From a virus (lineage: Duplodnaviria > Heunggongvirae > Uroviricota > Caudoviricetes): DNA of 41,003 bases. Both the position numbers and the translations under genes were made by a program. The notes under the pieces were generated by a model that saw nothing but the letters and a program-made list of their open reading frames with translations, did no database searches and was not told where the DNA came from. The stretch lies in the IMG/VR virus record IMGVR_UViG_3300045988_002471, positions 1-41,003 of that record. One strand, 5' to 3'. Every line of letters begins with the position of its first letter. Within the stretch, counting starts at the first letter, position 1. Positions 1,204 to 20,350 of the stretch are shown piece after piece.

Positions 1204-1677
1204 ATGGAACATATAAAAGATTTTCTAAGCTACGACCGAGAAACCGGGGTATTCACGTGGATACAGCCTACTTACCGTCGAGGGCGACCGGGAGACATCG
1301 CGGGGTGCATCAATAGTAGTGGATACTGGCGAATTCCGTACATGGGTCGATATTACATGGCGCACAGGCTGGCGTGGTTTTTCGAGTATGGTGAATGGCC
1401 CGAAGGTCCTCTTGATCATATAAACCGTGACAGGTTAGACAATAGGATTTCTAACCTAAGGAAAGCAACAACCGCCGATAATGTGCGAAACGCTAAAAAT
1501 AAGGGAGCTAGAACAGGAGTAAAGGGAGTAGTTAAAAACGGCAACCGATTTTACGGGCGTGTGCATTTTAACTACAAAAGTTATAACGCCGGTAGCTACG
1601 GAACTCTTGAAGAAGCAGAAAGCGCTGTAAAGAAATTAAGAGAAAAACTGCACAAGGAATTTTATTGCCATGACTAG
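1204..1677 (+). CDS. HNH homing endonuclease with C-terminal AP2 domain
   Basis: DHINRDRLDNRISNL HNH motif and GVKGV...GRVHFNYKSYNAGSYGTLEEA AP2-like region; start moved to ATG 1204 after RBS GGAG because the track start lies in the terminator. Confidence 0.75.
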   Translation: MEHIKDFLSYDRETGVFTWIQPTYRRGRPGDIAGCINSSGYWRIPYMGRYYMAHRLAWFFEYGEWPEGPLDHINRDRLDNRISNLRKATTADNVRNAKNKGARTGVKGVVKNGNRFYGRVHFNYKSYNAGSYGTLEEAESAVKKLREKLHKEFYCHD

Positions 1678-3847
1678 TTTATTATACCTGGATACCGAGA
1701 CGTTCTCTGGAGCGGACTTAAAGAAAGTCGGGTCGTATGCGTACGCGGAGCACCCGACGACAGAGGTTATAATTTGCACATATGCCGTTGATGATGGTCC
1801 TGTAGAAGTATGGGATTGCACTTCCGAAACAGTAATGCCAATAAGCCTCCGTGTTGCGCTCCGTAATGTTATGCGCGGACGTATGAAAATCGTGGGCCAT
1901 AACTTTTTAATGTTCGACCGTCTCATCATGAAGCACTGCTGGGGTTTTGATATTCCCGTAAGCAACACCATTGATACGATGATTTGGGCGTTTCGTCACG
2001 CGCTGCCGGGTTCACTCGACGCATTGTGCGAAGTGCTTGGCGTGTCTGCAGACAACGCGAAAGACAAACGAGGCAAAGCGCTTATTCAGCGTTTCTCTAA
2101 ACCGACGCCGAAGAACTACAAAATTCGCCGCTACACTGCTGAAACGCACCCGGATGAGTGGGCGCTGTTCATCAAGTACGCCGTTAGCGACATCACCGCG
2201 ATGCGTGAGGTCTTCCATAAGTTGCCGCGTTGGGGTAACTCAGAGTTTGAAGACCGTGTACTGGAACTGGACCAGTTAATTAACGACCGCGGGTTTAAGG
2301 TCGACGTTGCGCTGGCGGAAGCCGCAATTGAAGCTGTGGAGAAACACAAGGCACAGTTACAGGAAGAAGCCCAACGTAAATACGGCGGCTCGCTTACAGG
2401 TAAGGACTTCCTGCCGATTCTGCGTGAACTGGCGCCTGCGCATCGCATCCACAACGCGCAGAAGTCTACGCTTAACGACCTGCTTGCTGACGATGATTTA
2501 CCGGACGACGCCCGCACGATTATAGAAATGCGCCTCGGGGCGGCATCCACTGCGTCAACGAAATATAACCCGCTGCTGTTAGGCCGCTCGTCTGACGACC
2601 GCCGTCGCGGTTGCATCCAGTATGGTGGAGCTAAACGTACGTTACGATTTGCTGGTAAAGGCTTCCAGCCGCAGAACCTGGCGCGTGGGTACTATCACGA
2701 TGATGAACTGGATAAAGGTATTTCAGCATTACTTAAGGGCCGAGCACATCGCCGTTTTGATGTAGCCAAGCTAACGGCATCTACGGTTCGCAGCTGCATT
2801 ATCCCGGAAGCCGGACATAAGTTTGTCGTCGCCGACTACTCGAACGTTGAAGGCCGCGGGCTTGCGTGGCTGGCGGGGGAAGAAACCGCGCTAGATACGT
2901 TCCGTGCCGGACTGGATATTTACTGCGTAACCGCGGGTAAGATGTTCGGTATGGAGCCGGATTACATTAAGAAAGAACGTAAAGATTTGCGCCAGATTGG
3001 TAAGGCCTGCGAACTTGGGCTTGGCTATGCGGGCGGTGTCGGCGCATTCGTACAGTTCGCCAAGAACCTTGGCCTTGACCTGGTTGATATGGCAAAAACA
3101 ATGGATGGGACTTTCCCCGACCACATCTGGGCCGCTACCTCACGTGGATATGAGTGGGCGCGTATTCAGGAAGCCAAGCGACCACCACGTCCAGGTGAAA
3201 AGGATGACCGACCATCATATATTCTTGATAAGAAAGTGTGGCGTACCTGTGACGCTATCAAGCGTATGTGGCGTGAGTCACACCCGGAAACAGTAGCTTT
3301 CTGGCGGGATATTGAAGACGCAGCTATGGCAGCTATCCGCAATCCGGGCAAAGAGTTCACCGCAGGGCCGCGGGGAGTTAAGTTTTCGCGCAACGTAGAA
3401 ACGGACAACAACGGCAACAAAGTCGCCGGTTGGTGGTTGCGGATGACGTTGCCGTCGGGCCGCGTTATGTCTTATCCGGGTGTTGGGCTAAGCGTGTCGA
3501 AAGAGACAGACGAAGACGGGAAGGTGTCTACCAACGTGCGCATCAAGTACCAGGGCGAAAACCAGTTAACCCGTCAGTGGGGCTTCCAGTACACCTACTC
3601 TGGTAAACTGGTGGAAAACTGCACTCAGGCGCTGTGCCGTGATTTGTTGGCTAATGCACTGCTGAACGTCGAAGCAAACGGCTACCCGATTGTGCTTCAT
3701 GTTCACGATGAGATTATCTGCGAGACACCAGATTTACCAGAATACAATGTCGCAGAACTGGAACGATTGATGTGCGAATTACCAGAGTGGGCCGAGGGGT
3801 TCCCTCTTGTAGCAGAAGGCGCGGAGATGAAGCGTTATGCCAAGTAA
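1670..3847 (+). CDS. DNA polymerase, family A (Pol I-like) with 3'-5' exonuclease domain
   Basis: 725 aa; N-terminal LYLDTETF Exo I motif; C-terminal polymerase region with HVHDEI; start overlaps HNH stop. Confidence 0.85.
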   Translation: MTSLLYLDTETFSGADLKKVGSYAYAEHPTTEVIICTYAVDDGPVEVWDCTSETVMPISLRVALRNVMRGRMKIVGHNFLMFDRLIMKHCWGFDIPVSNTIDTMIWAFRHALPGSLDALCEVLGVSADNAKDKRGKALIQRFSKPTPKNYKIRRYTAETHPDEWALFIKYAVSDITAMREVFHKLPRWGNSEFEDRVLELDQLINDRGFKVDVALAEAAIEAVEKHKAQLQEEAQRKYGGSLTGKDFLPILRELAPAHRIHNAQKSTLNDLLADDDLPDDARTIIEMRLGAASTASTKYNPLLLGRSSDDRRRGCIQYGGAKRTLRFAGKGFQPQNLARGYYHDDELDKGISALLKGRAHRRFDVAKLTASTVRSCIIPEAGHKFVVADYSNVEGRGLAWLAGEETALDTFRAGLDIYCVTAGKMFGMEPDYIKKERKDLRQIGKACELGLGYAGGVGAFVQFAKNLGLDLVDMAKTMDGTFPDHIWAATSRGYEWARIQEAKRPPRPGEKDDRPSYILDKKVWRTCDAIKRMWRESHPETVAFWRDIEDAAMAAIRNPGKEFTAGPRGVKFSRNVETDNNGNKVAGWWLRMTLPSGRVMSYPGVGLSVSKETDEDGKVSTNVRIKYQGENQLTRQWGFQYTYSGKLVENCTQALCRDLLANALLNVEANGYPIVLHVHDEIICETPDLPEYNVAELERLMCELPEWAEGFPLVAEGAEMKRYAK

Positions 3848-3968
3848 ACTGATTATCGCGGTACTGGCGGGATTTGCTGCCGGTGTCTACTGTCACGAGG
3901 GTCAATACGGCATGATGGTTGCTATATTGGGTATGTTCATCGCAATTTATCTGTGGGTGCTGGAATGA
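3837..3968 (+). CDS. Small hydrophobic protein (43 aa), putative membrane peptide
   Basis: Own translation MPSKLIIAVLAGFAAGVYCHEGQYGMMVAILGMFIAIYLWVLE; below the ORF-track size cutoff. Confidence 0.3.
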   Translation: MPSKLIIAVLAGFAAGVYCHEGQYGMMVAILGMFIAIYLWVLE

Positions 3969-4063
3969 AAATCTACTGGTTTTATGAAGAAGACTGTCGA
4001 ATCTGTCCGCGCTGCGGTATTGAACATACGAAACGTGAGGGGTGTATAGATGAGTACGCCTGA
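3965..4063 (+). CDS. Small CxxC...CxxC zinc-ribbon-like peptide (32 aa)
   Basis: Own translation MKIYWFYEEDCRICPRCGIEHTKREGCIDEYA; ATGA overlap with upstream stop; overlaps VRR-NUC start. Confidence 0.25.
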   Translation: MKIYWFYEEDCRICPRCGIEHTKREGCIDEYA

Positions 4064-4355
4064 GGGGCGCATCCAGAAATACGCAAAAGAGCGATTCGAG
4101 GCCCTCGGTGGCCTCGTTCGAAAGCTGTCTTATGAGGGGCGCTCAGGCGCCCCCGACCTGCTGGTAATTCTTCCCGGCGGCATCGTCTGGTTCGTCGAGG
4201 TTAAGAAAGACGAAAACACGAAGCCAGACCCGCACCAGATACGTGAGCACGAGCGGATGCGTAAACGCGGTGCAAATGTTTTTGTAGTTGGTTCGCTCAA
4301 ACAGGTTGACGACCTAATAGCAAACTATTATAGTAGTCATACACCAACAATATAA
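4050..4355 (+). CDS. VRR-NUC domain nuclease (PD-(D/E)XK)
   Basis: 101 aa with GAPDLLVI...VWFVEVKK (D...E-V-K) core; RBS GAGGGG upstream. Confidence 0.7.
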   Translation: MSTPEGRIQKYAKERFEALGGLVRKLSYEGRSGAPDLLVILPGGIVWFVEVKKDENTKPDPHQIREHERMRKRGANVFVVGSLKQVDDLIANYYSSHTPTI

Positions 4356-4366
4356 GGAATTGAGAA

Positions 4367-4561
4367 ATGAAACACGAATACGACCGCAAACCAGCACGTG
4401 ACATCGTACCTGGCGACATGATTTTCAACGTTAAGACCCGTCGCCCTGTTGCCGTTGATACGGTGTTCGTCGAGTCGAACGGTAAACTGGTTATCGAAGA
4501 TGTAACGGGCAACGTTACCGCGTTCGGGCGTAAAGAGCTGGTACTCTACGTTAAGGATTGA
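4367..4561 (+). CDS. Hypothetical protein (64 aa)
   Basis: ORF with RBS AAGGA; between VRR-NUC and helicase. Confidence 0.45.
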   Translation: MKHEYDRKPARDIVPGDMIFNVKTRRPVAVDTVFVESNGKLVIEDVTGNVTAFGRKELVLYVKD

Positions 4562-4563
4562 GC

Positions 4564-5988
4564 ATGTCTAAATTTATCCGTCGAGAGTACCAGAAGCTCA
4601 TGACTTCGTTCATGTTGCAACACCCTCGCTGTAATATCTGGTGCGGCATGGGAGGGGGTAAAACCTCCTCTACTATGTGGGTGCTAAATCGACTGTTCCG
4701 TAATGGGCAACTTAATGACGACGACCGAGTGTTAATTCTGGCCCCTTTACGTGTTGCGTCCGGTACGTGGCCCGCAGAACAAGAGAAATGGAACTTCCCT
4801 TGTCTGCGTGTCGTCGATGCGACCGGTTCAGAGAAGCGCCGCATCGCGGCGCTGGAGTCAGATGCTAACGTGGTGTGCACAAACTACGAAGTTATCGAGT
4901 GGCTGATTGACTACTACGGCAAAGACGACTGGCCTTTTACGGTTATCGTTGCTGATGAGAGCACGAAGCTGAAATCTTTCCGTAGCCGTTCTGGAGGAAG
5001 CAAACGGGCTAAGGCGCTAAGCAAAGTGGCGTTCGGAAAGGTTAAGCGTTTCATTAACCTGACAGGCACACCGTCGCCGAACGGCCTCAAGGACTTGTGG
5101 GGGCAGAACTGGTTTATCGACGCTGGCGAGCGCCTTGGTTCTTCGTACACGGCATTCACCGACCGCTGGTTTAACTCAGTACAGAAAGGCAAGTCGGCGA
5201 TGGCGCGGGAGTACCACGCACGCCCGGGCGCGGATAATGAAATTCACCAGAAGATGAAAGACATAAGCCTCACTATTGACGCCGCTGAGTGGTTCGGGTG
5301 TGAAGCGCCGATTATTGTTCCGGTTGAAATCGACCTGCCGAAGAAAGCACGTCAGGCGTACATCGATATGGAGGAGAAGTTATTCGCGGAACTTGAGAGC
5401 GGGGAAGTGGAAGCTGCTAACGCTGCTGCGAAGACGTCGAAGTGCTTGCAAATTGCATCCGGTGCCGTATATGTATCGGGGCCAGACGGCGAAGCAACCA
5501 AAGAATGGGAGAAAGTGCACGACACGAAACTGGACGCGCTTGAGTCGATTGTGGAGGAGTTACAGGGTGCGCCGCTGCTTGTGGCCTATCAGTTCAAGCA
5601 CGAACTGGAGCGTATCCTTAAGCGATTCCCACAAGCACAGGCGTTTGCCAAAGGAGCGAAGGGTAATAAGCAGATGGAAGCGTGGAATCGTGGAGAAATC
5701 GAAATCTTATGCGTACATCCTGCGTCAGCGGGCCACGGCATATCGCTACAAGACGGCGGCCATCATATGGCGTTTTTCAGTCAGGGATGGAACCTCGAAC
5801 ACTATTTGCAGGTTATCGAGCGTATAGGTCCAACACGGCAAAAGCAATCTGGGTACAATCGCACCGTTTTTATCTACAAGATTATCGCTAAAGATACGTT
5901 GGATGAAGTAGTTGCGGCTCGTACCGACGAGAAAAAACAAGTACAAGACATACTACTAGAGTATATGAAGCGCAGAGGTAAAAAATGA
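4564..5988 (+). CDS. SNF2/DEAD-like superfamily 2 DNA helicase
   Basis: GMGGGKT Walker A-like, VIVADESTKLK DExx box, LTGTPSPN motif; start set to ATG 4564 after RBS AAGGA. Confidence 0.8.
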   Translation: MSKFIRREYQKLMTSFMLQHPRCNIWCGMGGGKTSSTMWVLNRLFRNGQLNDDDRVLILAPLRVASGTWPAEQEKWNFPCLRVVDATGSEKRRIAALESDANVVCTNYEVIEWLIDYYGKDDWPFTVIVADESTKLKSFRSRSGGSKRAKALSKVAFGKVKRFINLTGTPSPNGLKDLWGQNWFIDAGERLGSSYTAFTDRWFNSVQKGKSAMAREYHARPGADNEIHQKMKDISLTIDAAEWFGCEAPIIVPVEIDLPKKARQAYIDMEEKLFAELESGEVEAANAAAKTSKCLQIASGAVYVSGPDGEATKEWEKVHDTKLDALESIVEELQGAPLLVAYQFKHELERILKRFPQAQAFAKGAKGNKQMEAWNRGEIEILCVHPASAGHGISLQDGGHHMAFFSQGWNLEHYLQVIERIGPTRQKQSGYNRTVFIYKIIAKDTLDEVVAARTDEKKQVQDILLEYMKRRGKK

Positions 5989-6648: not shown

Positions 6649-9599
6649 TTATCTTCTAGTGCTGCCAGCCTCTTCTCGAACTCGCGCATCTTCTTACGCT
6701 GATAGGCAATCTCTATGAAGAACATCTGGTCCGCCCTAACCCCCCATCTGCCGCCGGGAGGGGATACTTGTACAGTCTGGCCCTCTTCATCAATATCATA
6801 CGCAGCTTCAATTGGGTCGTAGCACAAGAAAGCATATTTACAATCGGTAGAATCTTTCTCCATAAGCCCATGGTTGACCAAGATGTCTCGCACATCTTGG
6901 GCTATCACACCGAAGTGTATCCTTGCAGTGTCACCCTTGATTGCTAGGCTTTCAAGCCACTTAAAAGATATTACATGTATATCTTCCCATGCGGTAAGGA
7001 GTTGTCCCTCAATTTCCTCTTTATTCGTCTTAAGTGTACCATCAGACGTGTTTATCGTACCGGTGGTCGCGTACACCGTAGTCCACCTGTTACCTGCCGA
7101 ACCTAAAGGCACTTGCGAGTCTAAGTAAGGAAGGAAATTGTTGTATGAGTAGAAGCCTCCTGACGCATACATAATAGCCCTGTTAGGCGTTGCATGGTTT
7201 GCCCCGTACAGTTGCAGCAACGCACCATCGGAACTGGATGCGCCATCACCACCGCTAACTATCAGTCTTTGAACCGATGGGGTTTTAGTGGGGACTGTTT
7301 TTGAAATCAGCCCGTAATCACCATCAAACCGTGCGCGCACGGCAGACTGTTGTGTACCATCGTATTCCAGCCCCGTTACATGCAGGGAGTACACGCTTAC
7401 ATCATTGTCAAACGTTAAAGGTGCTTCTACATGGCGTACACCATCTACCCCCATGGCGACAGGTATTGTACGGTTAGGAGTTGCTCCGTATTTGAAATCA
7501 CGTGATACGTACGGGTGGTCTTCAATCTTTATCCGGTAGCTATATAAGTCAGCCGGATGCCCATCATGTTTGTACCATAACTTCGCACTGTTATCCCCTA
7601 TGCTCCAGGGAGAGAAGAAGTCTTCCCCACCAAAGATATAGTACAACCAGCCATCTTTAACACAGACCGAGCCGACGCCGACAGCAGAGTTAACGATATG
7701 ACCCTGGTATATTTGGTCGGTAATATTAAACCACTGAACATCATCTAAAGATGAAGGCCAGGACGACACATTGACTTTGCACATAAAGGTCCGTGGATAC
7801 GAACCTTCATAGCGGCTGTCCGGCTCGCCTCCTTCCCACTCGCCAAAGGCACGCTCTGTACCAAAGATGTAGAGATAGTCACCTACTTTAGCGAACGGAA
7901 GATTGGAGTGATGTACATTGTTCGGAAATCGCAAGTAGCTCCAGTTTTGCCCAGAATCGGTGCTCATCGCCAGTGTAGAGCCAGGGGAAGTAGGTAATGT
8001 GCCGCGTGTGGTAAGGTAGAGCACCCCACCATAACTTTTCACGCACGGCTCAGAAGCGTTATCAGCGTATGCCTGAGCGACAGTGCGACGAACGAATACG
8101 CCTGGATTGTCATACACGTTACTAAAATACAAGACGCCAAGACGACGAGGGGACACATCGCCGTTGTGGTAGCCGACAGCGATAGTGTAGTTAACATCAT
8201 CTATAACCGCAAAACTATGTGTCTCCGTGACACACAAATCAGCGTTAGTGGAGTATGCTACCCCAGGCAATTCGGTAATTTCCCACGGGCTGTCCCAGAA
8301 TCGCGTTGCGAAGTTCCAGGTAACACCCGCATTGTTTATGGTGGAACTCGCCGGGGTTGAGAGCGTAACAGTGAACGTATTTCGGTTAATTATAGACGAA
8401 ACCGTCATATTACCCGATACGCCAGTTGCCGATGTATTAGAGAAGTTAACCGCATCTCCTGCTTTTAGACCATGATTTTCTATAACAATGGTAGCAGTAG
8501 TGGAGCCAGAACTAATAGTTATTCCGCCGGTTGGGTGTCTAAAATACGGCATTGGGCGTGACCAAAGTTCTGCCTTCTTCATCCGCATATTAGATAAGTA
8601 GCGGGTTTCTATAACTGCATATAATCGGTTGCCGCACGTACCCATGCTCATGCAGTGGTAGTTAACTCTGTCCGAGGAAACACTAGCATTATAGTCAGCA
8701 TGGATCGGGGTCAACCACTCAGGCATTGACCAAGTCTGCCCGTCGTCACCAGAGCGAACCCAAGCTACATGTAAGTTTTGAACGCCATGTCGTTCGCCTG
8801 CCATAAACGGAGCGTAAATAACATTGTCGTAGACGAAAGTTTTATCCTGCGTCCATGCGTTGTAGAACGGGGTATCCGTCACCTTAGTTAGTGAGCCGTT
8901 AAAGAAGCCATCAGCTACATAAGTAAGCGGTTGCCCAGCTACGCGCTCGTAAACGAATGCAGCATTCTTAAATTTACTAATGTCAGGTAATTGGGAAACT
9001 TTATAAGTCAAACCCCTGCCGTCTATAATCCAATTGTTGGGGGAAGCTGCTAATACATTAAAAATAGATTGAGTATCATCAGTTACGCCGTCGCCCACGG
9101 CGCCCCATGCGCGCAGGTCGTATTCGTCCTTCCATCGCGCCACATGTAAATCTGGGTACAGAATTGCACCGTTTACATCAGATATTTGATGCCGCAGTAT
9201 GACCGACCCGACGGGCTGCCATGCCCCATCTGCCACGCCACCGGTGGACTGCGGAGAGGATGACGCTGGGATAATTTTTGGCAGAGCACCCAACCAATAG
9301 TACCAGTCCCCGTCACCGCCAGAGGACGACGGCCACAAAACTGCGGTGTTTCGGTCGTTAGCGGATAGTGTACCGCCTGACGTGAAATCAAAATCTGCCA
9401 GTTTAAAACCTGCGTCACGCAACACAGCCGGCAGTGTCTTCTGTGTCTGCCCTGTAACTGCGTTGGTCGCGTAATCGATATCAGAGCCACCAGCAACGCC
9501 GCCGGATTTACCAGTGATAACCTCGGCTTCGAAAATCTGGTGTTTCGTGGCGGTCTGTAAATCCGCCAGGCTTAAAACGTCACCGCATCCGCTTGACAT
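6645..9599 (-). CDS. Tailspike, sialidase-like (Asp-box/BNR) with C-terminal intramolecular chaperone (peptidase S74-like) domain; possible endosialidase
   Basis: 984 aa; Asp-boxes SGDDGQTW and STDSGQNW; GAVGDGVTDDT motif; C-terminal ...HFGVIAQDVRDIL...AALEDK autoproteolytic chaperone signature. Confidence 0.8.
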   Translation of the reverse strand: MSSGCGDVLSLADLQTATKHQIFEAEVITGKSGGVAGGSDIDYATNAVTGQTQKTLPAVLRDAGFKLADFDFTSGGTLSANDRNTAVLWPSSSGGDGDWYYWLGALPKIIPASSSPQSTGGVADGAWQPVGSVILRHQISDVNGAILYPDLHVARWKDEYDLRAWGAVGDGVTDDTQSIFNVLAASPNNWIIDGRGLTYKVSQLPDISKFKNAAFVYERVAGQPLTYVADGFFNGSLTKVTDTPFYNAWTQDKTFVYDNVIYAPFMAGERHGVQNLHVAWVRSGDDGQTWSMPEWLTPIHADYNASVSSDRVNYHCMSMGTCGNRLYAVIETRYLSNMRMKKAELWSRPMPYFRHPTGGITISSGSTTATIVIENHGLKAGDAVNFSNTSATGVSGNMTVSSIINRNTFTVTLSTPASSTINNAGVTWNFATRFWDSPWEITELPGVAYSTNADLCVTETHSFAVIDDVNYTIAVGYHNGDVSPRRLGVLYFSNVYDNPGVFVRRTVAQAYADNASEPCVKSYGGVLYLTTRGTLPTSPGSTLAMSTDSGQNWSYLRFPNNVHHSNLPFAKVGDYLYIFGTERAFGEWEGGEPDSRYEGSYPRTFMCKVNVSSWPSSLDDVQWFNITDQIYQGHIVNSAVGVGSVCVKDGWLYYIFGGEDFFSPWSIGDNSAKLWYKHDGHPADLYSYRIKIEDHPYVSRDFKYGATPNRTIPVAMGVDGVRHVEAPLTFDNDVSVYSLHVTGLEYDGTQQSAVRARFDGDYGLISKTVPTKTPSVQRLIVSGGDGASSSDGALLQLYGANHATPNRAIMYASGGFYSYNNFLPYLDSQVPLGSAGNRWTTVYATTGTINTSDGTLKTNKEEIEGQLLTAWEDIHVISFKWLESLAIKGDTARIHFGVIAQDVRDILVNHGLMEKDSTDCKYAFLCYDPIEAAYDIDEEGQTVQVSPPGGRWGVRADQMFFIEIAYQRKKMREFEKRLAALEDK

Positions 9600-13532: not shown

Positions 13533-15805
13533 TATTTAAACCCCGGCGCATTTCTTGTGGCTTTGCGGGCCTTGCTAATCTTACTGTTGCTGTTCTGCAA
13601 AGATGCAGCAACTTGCTCTTCTATGATGATACGCAGACGGCCTTCATCATCTTGCTCAGTAGATACGTTGCCAATTTGAGAACTCGTGTTGTTTACGATA
13701 GTAACATTAGACGGGCCGGAAGAAGACCCGTTTTGCCCCATAATTTCTTTCATCTGCTGCGCGGTGCGAACACGCGATGCACCCGCGGGCATGATAACTT
13801 CTGGTTTACCGCGTTCAGCGATAGTAGAAGCCTGCCCGGCGGATAACTGCCCACCCTGTTCACGCGCAGACCTGATAGCGGAAACCTGCGCCATACCCGC
13901 CCCAACGGCAGCGGCGGCCGCTACAGGCGCTAAGAACGGGCCGACTACAGGGATAGCCGCCGTTGACTTATACGCCTCAATAGCCGCGGTGTACGTGGCG
14001 ATGGTGGCCTGTACGATAGCGAATGCCTTGTACGCACCAGAAGCCTCCCCCAACGCAGACCCGATGTTTGAGGCCATGTTACCAAAGGCGGTTGCCGTTG
14101 CGTCGGCGCGCTTCGTAGCATACTGCTCGTTGATGGCGTTAAGCGCGGCCTGGTACTGTTTCTCATTAATAAGCCCCTGCTCACGGTACTTATCCGCTAC
14201 CGCCAGTTTCTGCTGTTCCTGGATGTCGAGAAGCTCAAGCTCAGTAGCGTTCTGACCCATAATCTGAGCCATGAAGTCGTCACCTTTCTGCTGCTTTTCC
14301 TGGGCTTCTTTCTGGCGTTTATCCAGTTCATCTTGCCGTTTTTGCCCGGCTTCGAGGACGATAGCTGTTTTAGCCTGTTCGTATTCTTTCAGCGACAGCG
14401 CGCCCTGGCTGTAGAACTCTTTTGCCTTAGCCAGTTTCTGCTGTTCCTGCGCGTCGATAGCCTTTAACTCATCGTTGTTCTGGCGAGCCAAAGTGTCGAG
14501 GTAATCCTGCGCCTGATTCCGCAATTGTTCTGCTTTCTTGGCGGCGGCTTTTGCTGCTTTATCGTCGGTGTTTCCTGCCCCGCCAGTTCCGCCCTTTTTA
14601 TTAACAAGACTGGCTAAGTCAATTTCTTGCTTCTTGCGCTCGTCGTACTGCTTGCGCTGTTCCTCAATTTCTTTCTTACGCTGCTTAGACCTGTTGGTAA
14701 TGGCCTGTGATTCTGCCTCAGCGCGTTTTATGCTAGCGGCGTACGCGGCGTCGGCCTCTGCGGTCAGGTTTTTAAATGTTAGCGCCGCCGTTTTGCTCGG
14801 GTCAAACACGTCGGCAAGGGTCTGCCCTAACGCTACAGCGTAATCGTCGATGCGCTGGAACCACGCAATAACCTCGTGAAATGTCTGCTGGATGTCCGGC
14901 AACCACTCACGGATGGCATCCGGTATAGTCCCCAGCGAGTCAGACATATCAACGGATTTGTCATCGGTATCGAATGCCAGGTCATTCAAGGCGTCGGAAA
15001 TAAACTTGAATGACTCATTGAACAGCGCCACCCAATCCTGGAGCGTGGCGGCTATCTCATTAGACGCGATGGCGTCGGTAAGCGCCGTGATAGCGTCTTC
15101 CGCTGTGGCCGCTTGCTCACCTACGGCGCCGCCAAAACCAGACCGCGCCACCGCAAGAACAAGACCGTCGAAGGAGTCGGCGAGGCTCGATAACTGGCCG
15201 TCTAGCGTCTTAGAGCGCGTCTCCATCGCCCCGGCAAAATCGGTGTTGCCGATATTCAGGAGGTATTTCTGAATCTCTTCGGAGTTCTTCTTAACCGTGG
15301 TCGTTACGCCGCGGAACGTGAACGAAACTGTATCTGCCTGTTGCGACGACTTGATGCCGAACTCTTTTAAGCGCTCAAATTCAAATGTACTGGCGTCGGC
15401 AACTGCCTCAATCATCTGATTAAGGTCTTTACCCATAGCCGCCGCGGTGTTGCCGTAGGAGATTAATGCCTCTTTGCTGGGGTTCAGACCGAGCGCAACG
15501 AGCTTGGTAAACCCCTCTACCGCCTGATTGAGACCGTACGGGGTCTCTTTTGCGAACTGTTGCAGGACGCTGAAAGCCTTAGCCGCGTTCTCGGCGCTCC
15601 CGGTCATCGTGATGAGGCTGGAGTTCAGCTTATCGAAGTTTCGCTGGGAATCCACCAGCGCGCTGAACACCTGCTTAGCGGTTTCCAGACTGACAACGGC
15701 GGCGGCGGCGGCCCCCGCCGCCTTGGTAAGCCCGTTCAGTTGTGATGTGGTTTTATCGACGCCGGTCGATGATACTCGTACTATCAAGCTAGCGGTATCA
15801 GCCAT
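13532..15805 (-). CDS. Tail tape measure protein
   Basis: About 757 aa, Ala/Gln-rich coiled-coil composition; follows chaperone pair; start set to ATG 15805 after RBS GAAGG (track start is TTG). Confidence 0.8.
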   Translation of the reverse strand: MADTASLIVRVSSTGVDKTTSQLNGLTKAAGAAAAAVVSLETAKQVFSALVDSQRNFDKLNSSLITMTGSAENAAKAFSVLQQFAKETPYGLNQAVEGFTKLVALGLNPSKEALISYGNTAAAMGKDLNQMIEAVADASTFEFERLKEFGIKSSQQADTVSFTFRGVTTTVKKNSEEIQKYLLNIGNTDFAGAMETRSKTLDGQLSSLADSFDGLVLAVARSGFGGAVGEQAATAEDAITALTDAIASNEIAATLQDWVALFNESFKFISDALNDLAFDTDDKSVDMSDSLGTIPDAIREWLPDIQQTFHEVIAWFQRIDDYAVALGQTLADVFDPSKTAALTFKNLTAEADAAYAASIKRAEAESQAITNRSKQRKKEIEEQRKQYDERKKQEIDLASLVNKKGGTGGAGNTDDKAAKAAAKKAEQLRNQAQDYLDTLARQNNDELKAIDAQEQQKLAKAKEFYSQGALSLKEYEQAKTAIVLEAGQKRQDELDKRQKEAQEKQQKGDDFMAQIMGQNATELELLDIQEQQKLAVADKYREQGLINEKQYQAALNAINEQYATKRADATATAFGNMASNIGSALGEASGAYKAFAIVQATIATYTAAIEAYKSTAAIPVVGPFLAPVAAAAAVGAGMAQVSAIRSAREQGGQLSAGQASTIAERGKPEVIMPAGASRVRTAQQMKEIMGQNGSSSGPSNVTIVNNTSSQIGNVSTEQDDEGRLRIIIEEQVAASLQNSNSKISKARKATRNAPGFK

Positions 15806-16130
15806 GATTTCTACCTTCAAAGATTGCTTCTAAGCCCATGATAATGTCTATCTCGAACAGGCTAAGCTGTTTTTGCGTAACATCGAGATAGGCTTTCAGG
15901 TCTTGCCACGTAACAGATTCTCTTGCAAACAATACTACAGCGTCCTCGCGCACGTGTCGCGTAAACTTAATGTCGCAATACGTCTCAAAGGTGGATATAA
16001 AAAGGGGCGGGCATTCTGGCCCGCCCCGTCGCGCTGCACGTTTTTTCTTATCGATTACACCCATCGCGATAAGCGCCTGTTCGTGTCCGTCGGCGATAGA
16101 ATCAAACTCTCTGATTTTATGCTTATCCAC
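15798..16130 (-). CDS. Tail assembly chaperone T-like frame, probably expressed as a G-T fusion by -1 frameshift
   Basis: Frame is open from 16181 with no ATG; -1 relative to the upstream gene; GGAAAAG at 16166..16172. Confidence 0.45.
   Translation of the reverse strand: MDKHKIREFDSIADGHEQALIAMGVIDKKKRAARRGGPECPPLFISTFETYCDIKFTRHVREDAVVLFARESVTWQDLKAYLDVTQKQLSLFEIDIIMGLEAIFEGRNHG
16004..16035 (-). terminator. Intragenic terminator-like hairpin (GGGGCGGGC-N6-GCCCGCCCC then TTTTTATAT on minus strand) inside the T-like frame
   Basis: Perfect 9-bp GC stem at 16004..16027 with a U-run on the coding strand. Confidence 0.45.
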
Positions 16131-16162
16131 AAACTCGTAGGTGGCGAACCTGTACAGCGCGT

Positions 16163-16579
16163 CTACTTTTCCTGTAATACTTTACGCTCGGCGTTATGGA
16201 ACGCCGCCACCTGTGTGCCTAATGCCTTGAACTGGTCCAGCAATTTGTTAAATGCTTCTTTAGAGAAAGGCTCATCAAAGCTCCAGCCGTTTACGACTTC
16301 TGCCGCGAGTTGCCGGTTGAGGTCTTCCGCCAGTTCGTTAATAGCCAGGTTATATTCAGTATAGTCGCCGGATTCTTTGGCGGCTTTTTCCAGTTCTTCG
16401 AAACGCGCCAACCCGCGACGGTACGCAATAATGAAAGCACGCCCCGCTTTAACGGCGACATCCGCATCGGGACTTACAACGTTAAGCCATTCACCGGAGT
16501 CTTCGCCGTTTGGCAGGAGAATCGGCATCTTCTTGCCCGCCAGTGCTTTCTCTTCGAAATAAAAATCAGAAAGTTTCAT
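16163..16579 (-). CDS. Tail assembly chaperone (lambda G-like)
   Basis: 138 aa, acidic; directly upstream of T-like frame and tape measure. Confidence 0.55.
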   Translation of the reverse strand: MKLSDFYFEEKALAGKKMPILLPNGEDSGEWLNVVSPDADVAVKAGRAFIIAYRRGLARFEELEKAAKESGDYTEYNLAINELAEDLNRQLAAEVVNGWSFDEPFSKEAFNKLLDQFKALGTQVAAFHNAERKVLQEK

Positions 16580-16687
16580 TCTTTAATCCTTTGGTTAAGA
16601 GGTTACAGGTTAACGATAAATGCGCCAGACGGGAACCACCCGCTTTTCGTGTGCGACACTAGGCGCAAACTTATTCTATCACATTAC

Positions 16688-16716
16688 TTGCACACCCCAA
16701 TATAATAGGGTACTAT
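16688..16716 (+). promoter_or_regulatory. Promoter TTGCAC-N17-TACTAT with operator-like palindrome (16703..16720) driving the plus-strand island
   Basis: -35 at 16688..16693, -10 at 16711..16716; the ~38-bp block recurs at 34662..34700 and 35663..35700. Confidence 0.55.
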
Positions 16717-16746
16717 TCACTTACACCAACAATGAAGGGGTTTAAA

Positions 16747-16938
16747 ATGTCCAGTTTACCAGTTTCCTTAATTCTGTTTGCACTGCTCGCTTATTTCGCG
16801 CCTTTCCTGGTTGCGTACTTCCGTAACCATAAAGCGAAGTTAGCGATATTCATGGCTAATCTGTTTCTTGGTTGGGTTCTGCTGCCGTGGGTATTTATTT
16901 TAATCTGGGCTTGCAACTCGAATGTCAAAGAGAAGTGA
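16747..16938 (+). CDS. Small two-TM membrane protein, superinfection-immunity (Imm)-like
   Basis: MSSLPVSLILFALLAYFAPFLVAYF...NLFLGWVLLPWVFILIWACN; start at ATG 16747 after RBS AAGGGG; Imm assignment is from memory of the family motif. Confidence 0.45.
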   Translation: MSSLPVSLILFALLAYFAPFLVAYFRNHKAKLAIFMANLFLGWVLLPWVFILIWACNSNVKEK

Positions 16939-16976
16939 GCTAGTATAGGACAAATCCTAAACACGAGGAAATAGGC

Positions 16977-18107
16977 ATGGCCCAGAAGAAAATAACCGAC
17001 GAACAGTTACAGGAAGAATTGAACGCTGGGATGAAGAATATCGACATTGCTCGTAAATACGGCATCTCAGACCGCGTAATTCGTATCCGTAAAGCGAAGC
17101 TGGCTAAGAAAGGCGTAGGTCACGGGCGCGACGTTAGTCACCTTGTGCCGGACGGCTACAAGATTAAAGGAACGTCGTCACTGGTGGACGAGTTCGGCAA
17201 CACTAAGTTGCAATGGGTTAAAACCGACACTGACGCCGAACGTCAGGTTGAGTTGATGAAGGCCGTAATCGAGGGCATGAAGTCGGAGATTACCCCCGTT
17301 GCTCCTGTTAAAGCCGTTCGCGCCAAACGAGACGACAAGCTACTCAACCTTTACACTGTGTCTGATTTCCATCTCGGTATGCTGGCCTGGGCTGACGAGA
17401 GCGGCGACGACTGGGACATGAAGATTGCGGAAGACCTGTTCTCCCGCTGGTTCGACGCAGCGTTCCAGAAAGCACCGGATGCAGGAACAGGAGTTATTAA
17501 TCTGCTGGGCGACCTTGCGCATTTTGATAGTCTGGACGCCGTTACACCTGCCAGTGGTCATGTTCTTGACGCTGACACCCGCTATCAGAAACTTGTACGC
17601 TACATGATTCGTATGGTCCGCCGTGTCATTGATATGGCTCTCGTTAAACATAAAAATGTTCGCTTGCTTATCGTGCAAGGTAACCACGACGAAAGCGGAA
17701 TGATTTGGTTGGCTGAGATGTTCAGTACGCTATACGACAACGAGCCGCGTGTGTTCGTCGATACGTCGCCGGATGTTTACAAGATGGTGCAACACGGCAA
17801 AACTACGCTGTTCTTTCACCACGGCCATAAAGCACGATTCGATGCTATCGAACCAGTTATGATCGCCAAGTTCCGCAAAGCGTTCGGCGAGAGTGTTTAC
17901 AGCTACGCCCATATAGGACACCTGCACCATCAGAAGATTGTAGAAAGCCGTAACATGATTGTTGAACAACACCGCACCCTGGCGGCTAAAGACGCCTACG
18001 CCTCGCGCGGCGGATGGATGTCGGGCCGCAGTGCAAACGTAATTACTTATAGTGCCGAATATGGCGAGGTCGCACGTTTAACTATTTCACCGGAGATGCT
18101 TGGATGA
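16977..18107 (+). CDS. Calcineurin-like metallophosphoesterase with N-terminal HTH-like domain
   Basis: Phosphoesterase motifs DFHLG, GDLAHFD, GNHDE, HHGH, GHLHH; N-terminal about 60 aa resemble a small HTH. Confidence 0.7.
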   Translation: MAQKKITDEQLQEELNAGMKNIDIARKYGISDRVIRIRKAKLAKKGVGHGRDVSHLVPDGYKIKGTSSLVDEFGNTKLQWVKTDTDAERQVELMKAVIEGMKSEITPVAPVKAVRAKRDDKLLNLYTVSDFHLGMLAWADESGDDWDMKIAEDLFSRWFDAAFQKAPDAGTGVINLLGDLAHFDSLDAVTPASGHVLDADTRYQKLVRYMIRMVRRVIDMALVKHKNVRLLIVQGNHDESGMIWLAEMFSTLYDNEPRVFVDTSPDVYKMVQHGKTTLFFHHGHKARFDAIEPVMIAKFRKAFGESVYSYAHIGHLHHQKIVESRNMIVEQHRTLAAKDAYASRGGWMSGRSANVITYSAEYGEVARLTISPEMLG

Positions 18108-18589
18108 AAGATATTGTGATTTTCGATTTAGACGGGACATTGGCAGATGGTACTCATCGTTTACACCTGCTGCCGAAAGATAACTACGGCGAAACCTGGG
18201 CGTGGAAACCATTTAACATGGCGTGCAAAGACGATGCACCCATTAAAGATAACATCGAACTGTGTAACGCCATTAATCGTCGCTATGCCGTTATTATCTT
18301 AACAGGCCGTAGTGATGACGCGGAAAAAGAAACCAGAATGTGGTTGCAGCGCCACCGCGTCGAATTTTATCAGTTAATCATGCGCAGCAAACACGACAAC
18401 AGAAAAGACATCGTAATTAAAGAAGAGGTGTTGCGTGCTATTGGGCCGGAGAGAATCTTGTGTGCATTCGACGACTCTCCAGCGGTAATAAAGCATTTCC
18501 GCGAACTCGGCATAACCACTCACGCAGTTACTGAATACGACTGTAACGGGAACTCTACACACTTAAAACCACATGGGAGTGATAAATAA
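18104..18589 (+). CDS. HAD-family phosphatase, T4 polynucleotide kinase 3'-phosphatase-domain-like
   Basis: VIFDLDGTLA (DxDGT), IILTGRS, K, AFDDSP motifs; resemblance to T4 Pnk phosphatase domain recalled from memory. Confidence 0.65.
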   Translation: MKDIVIFDLDGTLADGTHRLHLLPKDNYGETWAWKPFNMACKDDAPIKDNIELCNAINRRYAVIILTGRSDDAEKETRMWLQRHRVEFYQLIMRSKHDNRKDIVIKEEVLRAIGPERILCAFDDSPAVIKHFRELGITTHAVTEYDCNGNSTHLKPHGSDK

Positions 18590-19143
18590 TGGCTAAGGTA
18601 ATTATTCTTAATGGTCCTGCGGGCTGCGGGAAAGACACACTTGCTAGGGCGCTGGTAGAAATGGGCTTTGCGAAGGGTGTCGCCAGTTTCAAGAATCCGA
18701 TGTTCAATATTGCTATGGCTGCGTTAGGCCAGGATGCTTACCGCGAGTTTCTCGACGGCTACGACGACCGGGCGCGGAAAGAAAAGCCAGAGGGTTTCCT
18801 TAACGGGTTGTCTCGGCGTCAGTTCATGATTGCCATTTCCGAGCAATTCATTAAACCGGTATTCGGTGATGATTATTTCGGCAAGTATCTTGCCGGAAAC
18901 TTGCCCGACGGCAACGAAGTTTTTGTAGTGTCCGACGGTGGATTCGCCAGCGAAGTAGCCCCTATCGTTGCCGCGGGGCATGATGTGAGAATCGTCCGCT
19001 TGCACAGAGACGGCCATACGTTTGAAGGGGACAGCCGCGGTTACCTGTACGATATTGATGGTGTAAAAGATTACGACACCTACATCATACCGGGTGACGT
19101 TAAATCGAACGTTATAGACATTGCTTTAAAATTAGGTTTGTAA
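18589..19143 (+). CDS. P-loop kinase (dNMP-kinase-like or polynucleotide-kinase-like)
   Basis: Walker A GPAGCGKDT; about 184 aa; start overlaps upstream stop. Confidence 0.6.
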   Translation: MAKVIILNGPAGCGKDTLARALVEMGFAKGVASFKNPMFNIAMAALGQDAYREFLDGYDDRARKEKPEGFLNGLSRRQFMIAISEQFIKPVFGDDYFGKYLAGNLPDGNEVFVVSDGGFASEVAPIVAAGHDVRIVRLHRDGHTFEGDSRGYLYDIDGVKDYDTYIIPGDVKSNVIDIALKLGL

Positions 19144-19180
19144 GAAAAAAAAAAAGGCCCCGAAAGGGGCCTTAGTTTTA
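19144..19180. terminator. Bidirectional rho-independent terminator (A-run, AAGGCCCC-gaaa-GGGGCCTT, T-run)
   Basis: Perfect stem flanked by A12 and T-run between convergent genes. Confidence 0.75.
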
Positions 19181-20350
19181 TGCGTAGGTGATACGTTGAA
19201 TTACGATAGACGACTGGTACTGATTGCCGGTAGCCTGGCCTTCAATGGACTGAGTGATTGACTCAGGCCCACCAATCTCAGGTGTAACCGCCGTAAGCTC
19301 TGCACGTTTCAAACTGAAAGACATAGCCCCGTTTACCCCTGCCAGAATAGAGTTAATCTCTACCTGCTGCTCGTTGATAAACTTCTGAATCATCGCCATG
19401 TCGTACAGCTTGCCAGAGATAGAGAATGTGTTAGCTGCGCGTCCACGTTCGACGAACGCCACGCTACTGTTACCGAGTTCGAACTGCGCGGAAGCTCCGT
19501 TGTCGTTGGTGATGGTGAGAGTATCGCAACGCAACGGCGTGGAGCCATCGAACACCGACACATCTACCGACGAGAACGGCTCATCGGTGAACGTAACCTG
19601 AGAGAAATCAGAGCCAGACGGCGACGCGGTAAGAATCTCCTGACTCAGGCCGATGAACGGGAAGCTGCCGGTGACCATGGCGTTAACCGCCTGCTCTACG
19701 GTAAAGCCAGAGATTTCCACACCTTTGGTCAGCATGTACGCGTCCGGGGTACCACACTGGCCCTTGAACCACGTCAGGATGGAGAACGTCTTACACGCGT
19801 TACCGGTTTCCAGCTTGTCGCCAGTTTTTGCGTCAGTGGTTACTGTCTCTGCTGTCAGCGTGTGCTGAATACCTGCGCCCGTAACTACCAGAGCGGAAAC
19901 CGCGGTCACGATAAACGGTTTTGCGTTGTCGCCGGTTAAGTCGGTGAACGCAATCAGGTCGCCAACTTCAACGCCGTCGGTAATAAAGCTGCCATCGGCA
20001 CGGGTGAACGTCTTGCCTGCGGGTGCAACGGTAATCGATAACCCTGACAGAGAAACCCCGGACTGCCACGTAGAGCCTAAAGCGCCCGCCAGCCAGTCGT
20101 CCTGGCTTTTCGAGCTAAGCTCAATTGCGTACTCCCCGCTAACCTGTTTGTTGCCGGTGCGGATGGAGGTAGTTTCACGGCTGCCGTCCAGTTCGTTGGA
20201 TGTCAGTGTGTCGCGGGTAATGGCAGGAACGCCACCCGTGTTACGCAACGGCGACCATACCGGGTTAGTCGGTGTTACACCCGGGGTCGCTTCCGCCACA
20301 TAGAATTGCGCCGTATTCGCGCCCTTAAAAGGAGTTGTAGCCATATTCAC
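19178..20350 (-). CDS. Major tail protein (putative)
   Basis: 390 aa; directly downstream of tail-completion genes; ATGA coupling. Confidence 0.55.
   Translation of the reverse strand: MNMATTPFKGANTAQFYVAEATPGVTPTNPVWSPLRNTGGVPAITRDTLTSNELDGSRETTSIRTGNKQVSGEYAIELSSKSQDDWLAGALGSTWQSGVSLSGLSITVAPAGKTFTRADGSFITDGVEVGDLIAFTDLTGDNAKPFIVTAVSALVVTGAGIQHTLTAETVTTDAKTGDKLETGNACKTFSILTWFKGQCGTPDAYMLTKGVEISGFTVEQAVNAMVTGSFPFIGLSQEILTASPSGSDFSQVTFTDEPFSSVDVSVFDGSTPLRCDTLTITNDNGASAQFELGNSSVAFVERGRAANTFSISGKLYDMAMIQKFINEQQVEINSILAGVNGAMSFSLKRAELTAVTPEIGGPESITQSIEGQATGNQYQSSIVIQRITYA

Follow-up and report, generated by a model that had tools for sequence, protein, structure and literature searches.

What does a metallophosphoesterase do in a phage when its N-terminus carries a predicted helix-turn-helix (HTH) domain? 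The question is raised by an open reading frame (ORF) at positions 16977-18107 (+ strand) of a tailed phage (Duplodnaviria; Heunggongvirae; Uroviricota; Caudoviricetes), in a stretch of 41,003 nucleotides referred to here as the window (IMG/VR virus record IMGVR_UViG_3300045988_002471, positions 1 to 41,003). A preliminary description, made from the letters and translations of this DNA, proposed a nuclease or end-processing enzyme directed to DNA or RNA, and not a protein phosphatase. That interpretation is supported here and was reasonable, both activity and DNA binding being predictions. The product is probably a phosphodiesterase that acts on DNA. More specifically, and more tentatively, it may be a stand-alone, HTH-tethered, Mn-dependent nuclease resembling Mre11/SbcD that belongs to a replication, recombination and nucleotide-supply module. 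This reading draws on an invariant active site, a family-wide HTH, gene contexts in DNA metabolism and a recurring trio of genes.

The open reading frame and its family

The ORF starts with ATG at 16977, preceded by a GAGGA Shine-Dalgarno sequence at 16965-16969, and its stop codon ends at 18107, predicting a protein of 376 amino acids (aa) exactly as first described. The window represents a K1G-like Escherichia coli phage of the genus Kagunavirus (Guernseyvirinae) and shares 96-97% nucleotide identity over positions 16000-19200 with E. coli phages fTaEco01, UTI89UKE1 and K1G. The counterpart in K1G is gp22 [YP_009168802], named 'DNA repair exonuclease' in its record, and many public proteins are 99% identical to the product. 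The PHROG 704 'DNA repair exonuclease' profile is matched end to end (E 2.2e-167, aa 3-375 on positions 1-389/390).

Judged by its sequence, the protein is an ordinary member of PHROG 704, with the same architecture and length as K1G gp22, Tls gp66 and the proteins of T1-like phages. The family name derives from remote similarity, and the GenBank names of members conflict, including DNA repair exonuclease, metallophosphoesterase, calcineurin-like phosphoesterase and Ser/Thr phosphatase, as well as DNA polymerase II small subunit, sigma-70 r4 domain protein, winged-helix protein and DNA-binding protein. The combination of HTH and phosphoesterase is already catalogued, both domains having been flagged by automatic annotation, and is neither rare nor new. 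The ORF had been presented as a fusion; the two-domain architecture holds, but the novelty implied by that word does not, since this arrangement is the norm in a very large annotated phage family.

An AlphaFold2 model built on a 124-sequence alignment (mean predicted local distance difference test score (pLDDT) 83.9 and predicted template modelling score 0.73 for the whole protein) divides the predicted protein into three parts, namely the HTH (aa 5-46), a beta-hairpin with a helix (aa 58-104) and the phosphoesterase core (aa 119-376). The features of the ORF are as follows.

16977-18107, + strand: complete ORF of 376 aa predicting HTH, beta-hairpin/helix and metallophosphoesterase (PHROG 704); phrog_704 match, public proteins ~99% identical
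16989-17114, + strand: predicted three-helix HTH, aa 5-46; AlphaFold2, Pfam matches in the family
17148-17288, + strand: conserved beta-hairpin (aa 61-85) and helix (aa 87-103); conservation, model, homologue lacking the HTH
17331-18104, + strand: binuclear metallophosphoesterase core, aa 119-376
17364-17378, + strand: motif I DFHLG, aa 130-134; D130 and H132 invariant, compare SDWHLG of SbcD
17508-17528, + strand: motif II GDLAHFD, aa 178-184; G178 and D179 invariant, H182 and D184 at least 90% conserved
17538-17582, + strand: family-specific loop AVTPASGHVLDADTR, aa 188-202; conservation, pLDDT <50 at aa 188-191 and 194-199
17679-17693, + strand: motif III GNHDE, aa 235-239; N236 and H237 invariant
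17817-17828, + strand: motif IV HHGH, aa 281-284; H282 invariant
17916-17930, + strand: motif V GHLHH, aa 314-318; G314 and H317 invariant, H315 at least 90% conserved

The phosphoesterase core

A first search for homologues returned only sequences of at least 97% identity, and diverse homologues were gathered with a profile of the representatives of 50%-identity clusters. Conservation was assessed in an alignment of the query with 137 such representatives that are 31-50% identical to it. The five metallophosphoesterase motifs that had been read from the translation were all confirmed at their positions, with their key residues invariant in the alignment. They follow the order of the superfamily, DxH / GDxx[DH] / GNH[DE] / H / GHxH, and supply the ligands of a binuclear metal site. 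All seven metal or catalytic ligands are invariant across the diverse homologues, and copies in temperate phages keep every catalytic residue. At the sequence level the five motifs are evidently not chance matches, and the core has the beta-sandwich fold of phosphoesterases.

Pfam detects the domain only below its gathering thresholds (Metallophos, PF00149, 19.0 bits against 21.5; Metallophos_2, PF12850, 21.4 against 27), which makes PHROG 704 a divergent branch of the superfamily. A further element adjoins motif II. The loop at aa 188-202 (AVTPASGHVLDADTR) is almost invariant across the family and, because it is conserved yet flexible and lies beside motif II, is probably functionally important; it is a candidate substrate-binding or partner-binding element.

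The N-terminal HTH and the beta-hairpin element

The predicted HTH helices lie at aa 8-16, 21-28 and 32-44, a three-helix fold of the resolvase, LuxR-GerE or sigma-70 region 4 type, and the N-terminal region modelled alone with 35 homologous N-termini reaches a pLDDT of ~90. The recognition helix, DRVIRIRKAKLAKKG, is very basic, with seven Lys or Arg residues and one Asp or Glu. The protein itself falls short of any Pfam HTH threshold (GerE 15.7 bits against a cut-off of 23.5). Among 124 diverse homologues, for which 25 Pfam families are listed, every family other than those of phosphoesterases is an HTH family; the counts are 28 for HTH_1, 18 for HTH_50, 16 for HTH_8, 14 for Sigma70_r4_2 and 7 for GerE, and the best E-values are 1.5e-9 (Sigma70_r4_2) and 2.4e-8 (GerE). 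The family's own HTH profile is matched by 118 of 150 representatives (E <1e-3), and in 139 of 144 more than 100 residues precede motif I. The sequence of the HTH is poorly conserved, the conserved part of the protein being the catalytic core.

The first ~60 residues had been described as a small DNA-binding HTH. The string of residues quoted for it is present at aa 6-46, and the region is neither disordered nor of another type, given the three predicted helices, the pLDDT of ~90 and the HTH families in homologues. Its extent was overestimated: the HTH spans ~42 residues, and aa 58-104 form a separate element. The linker that follows the HTH (aa 47-57) has lower model confidence, and the HTH is therefore probably flexibly tethered.

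Hairpin residues G65, S67, W80 and K82 are invariant. A homologue of 317 aa from a Campylobacter phage is without the HTH and starts exactly at the hairpin element. The retention of the hairpin and helix in this homologue indicates that they are part of the catalytic module and not a spacer.

Relationship to characterised phosphoesterases

The closest structural neighbours of the core are Mre11 of Thermotoga maritima (3qg5, 14.6 Z units) and SbcD of Staphylococcus aureus (7dog, 14.4), with lower scores for the small subunit of DNA polymerase delta (13.7), the PolD DP1 proofreading exonuclease (13.6) and E. coli SbcD (12.7). The Ser/Thr phosphatase PP5 ranks only 58th (8.8 Z units). On these scores the core groups best with the branch of the superfamily that acts on nucleic acids and clearly not with PPP enzymes. 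A library of viral structures yields as neighbours phage proteins of 320-500 aa that are themselves uncharacterised, several of them automatically named 'DNA polymerase II small subunit'. Searching the PDB by sequence, whether with the whole protein, the core segment or the family profile, gave nothing significant, and matches to the STIV B204 ATPase were dismissed as chance. NCBIfam and PADLOC yielded nothing useful, with no PADLOC matches.

A Ser/Thr/Tyr protein phosphatase resembling NinI of lambda would suit the nin-like position of the gene on lambdoid contigs and the name 'putative serine/threonine protein phosphatase' in one homologue record. Motif II reads GDLAH, lacking the DRG of the PPP-type GDxVDRG, and the closest fold neighbours are not of the type of lambda phosphatase or NinI. 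One lambdoid contig has a separate small Metallophos protein besides its PHROG 704 gene. We regard a protein phosphatase as extremely unlikely, and in this respect the preliminary description is supported.

The likeness to Mre11/SbcD lies in the fold and the active site, with motif I (SDFHLG) nearly equal to the SDWHLG of SbcD, whereas the phage protein has an N-terminal HTH and hairpin element instead of the further parts of those enzymes. Several observations weigh against a nuclease of this kind. Phosphodiesterases that are not nucleases are nearly as close in structure (MJ0936 13.6, YfcE 13.0, LpxH 12.7 and Rv0805 12.0 Z units), so that the margin over generic phosphodiesterases is only 1-2 Z units. 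The family profile finds SbcD/Mre11 in the PDB only at E 0.36-0.9, hhalign against E. coli SbcD gives a probability of 3% over 16 columns at motif III only, and SbcD falls in phrog_100 and not in phrog_704. The capping domain that follows the core of Mre11 is absent, and there is no Rad50/SbcC-like ATPase among the 13 ORFs of at least 230 aa in the window, every one of which could be assigned (polymerase, helicases, primase-helicase, tail, head, portal and terminase proteins). An HTH on an enzyme can also serve autoregulation rather than substrate targeting. The literature found on PHROG 704 consists of genome reports, with no biochemical or genetic study of any member; papers on HIDEN-SEQ, Metis, the Viral Compendium and daunorubicin do not treat the gene. 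Finally, an obligate link to the HAD phosphatase and kinase genes that follow the ORF in the window was rejected, the neighbours being others in Jerseyvirus, Tls, Vibrio, Sinorhizobium and temperate phages. The protein is of Mre11 type by fold and active site, yet is not a member of the Mre11/SbcD family.

There is precedent, by analogy, for phage phosphoesterases that act as DNases. In phage T5, A1, a predicted metallophosphatase, is essential and sufficient for degradation of host DNA, and works with the DNA-binding partner A2 and the HAD dNMP (deoxynucleoside monophosphate) phosphatase Dmp (bioRxiv 10.64898/2026.04.02.716235). As in the window, a phage phosphoesterase, a DNA-binding function and an HAD phosphatase are present within one early module, and the two phosphoesterase families have a local 'NHDxxxSxWL' signature around motif III in common. 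However, A1 is a protein of 556 aa with another N-terminal half that belongs to phrog_1745, there is no PHROG cross-match, and the DNA-binding function resides on the separate protein A2, which shows no similarity to the HTH of the 16977-18107 protein. The hhalign comparison of PHROG 704 with the A1 family profile gives a probability of 65% (E 6e-5) confined to 45 columns around motif III. Homology to A1, suggested by eye from NHD..S.WL, HGH, GH.H and a terminal ITY..G strand, was not demonstrated (hhalign probability 16% with the single sequence, 65% with the family profile), and A1 is treated here as an analogue only. Contigs of 30-50 kb encode proteins of ~480 aa with 33-50% identity to the C-terminal phosphoesterase domain of A1, and on that account the A1 family of host DNA degradation seems to reach beyond the large Demerecviridae genomes.

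The metallophosphoesterase Gp48 of mycobacteriophage A10ZJ24 is another phosphoesterase of phage origin; it is expressed early, and its phosphodiesterase activity causes DNA damage (PMC12287305), but its motif I Asp is residue 10, leaving no room for an N-terminal HTH/hairpin module. PolD DP1 and the B subunits of eukaryotic polymerases differ in that the PHROG 704 protein has no OB-fold domain and no relationship to them at the sequence level. In the sampled early region of Tls, which has a family member, no polymerase was found, and T1-like phages are not known to encode one. Mre11/SbcD, T5 A1 and Gp48 are the closest characterised analogues, all distinct families of the same superfamily.

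The gene cassette in the window

The ORF is the second of four + strand genes that lie antisense inside a late tail operon of the - strand, between the genes for the tail assembly chaperone and the major tail protein. The other features of the cassette are listed below.

16678-16706, + strand: sigma-70-like promoter candidate (ATCACA-17-TATAAT, 10/12), a consensus match only, such sites being no commoner than in shuffled controls
16732-16938, + strand: Imm-type superinfection immunity protein of 68 aa, opening the cassette; PF14373 E 9e-13, phrog_1039
18104-18589, + strand: HAD phosphatase of the polynucleotide kinase-phosphatase type, 161 aa; PF25109 E 1e-19, phrog_415 E 2e-66
18589-19143, + strand: dNMP-kinase-like P-loop kinase of 184 aa, closing the cassette; phrog_139 E 3e-46
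19154-19173, no single strand: GC-rich hairpin terminator acting in both directions, which separates the cassette from the convergent major tail gene; on the - strand it has a 9-T tail

The phosphoesterase and HAD phosphatase genes overlap in ATGA (18104-18107), and the HAD phosphatase and kinase genes in TAATG (18587-18591). These overlaps of start and stop codons suggest that the three genes are translationally coupled. A probable transcription unit of its own and the coupling to the HAD phosphatase and dNMP-kinase-like gene argue, in turn, for a role of the phosphoesterase in a replication, recombination and nucleotide-supply module. Late transcription of the tail operon by read-through would be antisense to the cassette.

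The same neighbours could point to the healing of RNA ends, in which a 2',3'-cyclic phosphodiesterase or 3'-phosphatase would work with the HAD phosphatase and kinase to repair tRNAs cut by host anticodon nucleases. The HAD phosphatase is of the PNKP type (PF25109, 1e-19) and lies beside a P-loop kinase, and in Pnkp of Clostridium thermocellum the phosphatase module is likewise a phosphoesterase of the calcineurin type. However, a repair module of the T4 Pnkp type combines kinase, 3'-phosphatase and RNA ligase, and the annotation of the near-identical K1G genome includes no RNA ligase. In addition, the family matched by the kinase is that of dNMP kinases rather than polynucleotide kinases, the HTH is a module for duplex DNA, and the trio is absent from many contexts of the family. 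RNA repair is for these reasons very unlikely.

On the - strand, the tail assembly chaperone is represented by a pair of ORFs (16163-16579 and 15798-16130) that match consecutive halves of phrog_15027 and are annotated in K1G as a joined product, the programmed frameshift that commonly precedes the tape measure gene. Elsewhere in the window, aa 444-537 of the family A DNA polymerase ORF (1670-3847, + strand) match phrog_93 'endonuclease' (E 1e-13), which may reflect an inserted nuclease-like segment or a mixed PHROG.

Distribution and gene neighbourhoods

The family was found by tblastn in 2045 of 50,697 phage records, at full length in 1958, and the groups include Guernseyvirinae, Drexlerviridae (T1-like phages, for example Tls gp66), Klebsiella Webervirus, and phages of Vibrio, Pseudomonas, Sinorhizobium and Campylobacter. 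A HMMER scan of 1.84 billion cluster representatives detected 4637 clusters (50% identity) at E <=1e-3 and 1147 at E <=1e-30, with lengths mostly of 370-420 aa. In 508 of 522 Drexlerviridae genomes the gene is followed directly by the holin-endolysin-spanin cassette (PMC13164509). The following arrangements illustrate the range of contexts.

Tls (stretch 3326-5947): Dam, HNH endonuclease, PHROG 704 gene, then lysis cassette
Pseudomonas phage Motto: helicase, Holliday-junction resolvase, Dam, PHROG 704 gene, terminator, lysis cassette
Vibrio phage: OB-fold single-stranded DNA-binding protein adjoining the PHROG 704 gene
Campylobacter phage: DNA ligase and resolvase adjoining the PHROG 704 gene
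Temperate phage mEp044: PHROG 704 gene between replication protein O and helicase, in an early operon near cI and integrase
Metagenomic contigs: NinB, RecA-dependent nuclease, primase and DNA polymerase A accompany the PHROG 704 gene, which closes the early region and precedes lysis and terminase genes

The context is one of DNA metabolism nearly everywhere, as in Tls and Motto, where helicase, Holliday-junction resolvase and Dam precede the PHROG 704 gene, and the common denominator is a module for DNA replication, recombination and nucleotide metabolism. Within a phage lineage the gene keeps its position while its downstream neighbours change. Jerseyvirus LP31 has it in the same slot, with the downstream genes swapped for those of a 76-aa protein and a 223-aa 'DNA-binding protein' (Salmonella phage LP31 4001-6238). 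Exonuclease, polynucleotide kinase and dNMP kinase frequently occur together in Drexlerviridae (PMC13164509), and this trio has its counterpart in the window cassette as exonuclease, PNKP-type HAD phosphatase and dNMP-kinase-like enzyme. On two lambdoid metagenomic contigs with a family member, a gene with an Acb2/Tad1 hairpin domain (8565-8927) lies just downstream of the lysozyme gene; Acb2/Tad1 is a family of anti-CBASS/anti-Thoeris sponges.

The trio allows a different role to be considered, in which the enzyme would take part in demolishing the host chromosome for nucleotide salvage in the manner of T5 A1/A2/Dmp, with the HAD phosphatase and dNMP kinase processing the products and the phage reusing the nucleotides. 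The translational coupling of the three genes, their frequent occurrence together in Drexlerviridae, the T5 parallel itself, the local profile similarity to the A1 family near motif III and a motif I common to the window HAD phosphatase and T5 Dmp would all fit. Temperate phages, however, carry copies with an intact active site, in mEp044 within an early replication operon near cI and integrase, and indiscriminate destruction of host DNA would be incompatible with lysogeny there. Neighbours also differ in Jerseyvirus and Tls, and the similarity to A1 is confined to 45 columns between members of different PHROGs. A classical gene of phage T1 is reportedly required for the degradation of host DNA, but it was not linked to the ORF and carries no weight here. 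The salvage role is considered unlikely.

The position before the lysis genes bears on a further possibility, a bifunctional enzyme-regulator on the model of BirA or NadR, whose HTH would bind operators or promoters of late, lysis or its own genes while the phosphoesterase senses or hydrolyses a nucleotide ligand. Besides the arrangement in Drexlerviridae, the end of the early region before lysis or terminase genes, occupied on diverse contigs, is the slot of lambda Q; the HTH is of the sigma-region-4/LuxR type; and there is a weak match to phrog_836 'late transcriptional activator' (E 1e-3). Yet the lysis genes do not adjoin the ORF in the window, homologues without the HTH exist, the conserved part is the catalytic core while the HTH is poorly conserved, in Motto a terminator stands between the gene and the lysis cassette, and the location may be no more than the point where the replication module ends. 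We find a regulator of this kind improbable. A combined role is comparably doubtful, in which the protein, besides being a nuclease, would be a timing switch of T1-like and related siphoviruses, a sigma-region-4/LuxR-type HTH factor whose DNA binding is coupled to the phosphoesterase site (for example by nucleotide sensing) and which controls the adjacent lysis or late genes. It is suggested by the location immediately upstream of the lysis cassette in the Drexlerviridae genomes and by the lambda-Q-like position on several lambdoid contigs.

Hydrolysis of small nucleotides as counter-defence, directed at cyclic nucleotide immune signals, Ap4A or NAD, is scarcely probable. It would leave the near-universal HTH unexplained, there are no PADLOC matches, the context is DNA metabolism, and the prevalence in 508 of 522 Drexlerviridae genomes is that of a core gene, unlike accessory anti-defence genes.

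A proposed model of an HTH-tethered enzyme

Under the preferred reading of a nuclease resembling Mre11/SbcD, the protein would be expressed from a sigma-70-type unit of its own, with its translation coupled to that of the HAD phosphatase and the dNMP-kinase-like enzyme. The N-terminal HTH, flexibly tethered through the linker at aa 47-57, would hold the enzyme on duplex DNA, so that a basic HTH would replace the Rad50 clamp and the capping domain of canonical Mre11. The hairpin/helix element and the loop at aa 188-202 may help to form the substrate site. The binuclear core, probably with Mn2+, would cut or trim DNA ends and structures as an exonuclease and/or single-strand endonuclease without a Rad50/SbcC ATPase. 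The enzyme would process replication or recombination intermediates; the coupled enzymes would clean 3'-phosphate ends and re-phosphorylate dNMPs, and the nucleotides released could be recycled by these neighbours. The analysis shows the domain identities, the invariance of the active site, the fold neighbours, the gene contexts and the absence of a Rad50 partner, whereas we infer that the protein binds and cleaves DNA, on which substrate it acts and when it is expressed.

Implications

PHROG 704 is among the most widespread phage genes of predicted function that could be measured here, being present in ~4% of the phage genomes sequenced. T1-like phages and Guernseyvirinae, two groups with candidates for therapy and biocontrol, have it as a core gene, and it is also found in temperate phages. 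The practical value is modest, in that one three-part domain map replaces conflicting annotations. If the protein is indeed a Rad50-independent, HTH-tethered, Mre11-like nuclease, it would represent a simpler way of directing an ancient nuclease fold to DNA, and a central player in the replication, recombination or host-DNA recycling of these phages would have been identified.

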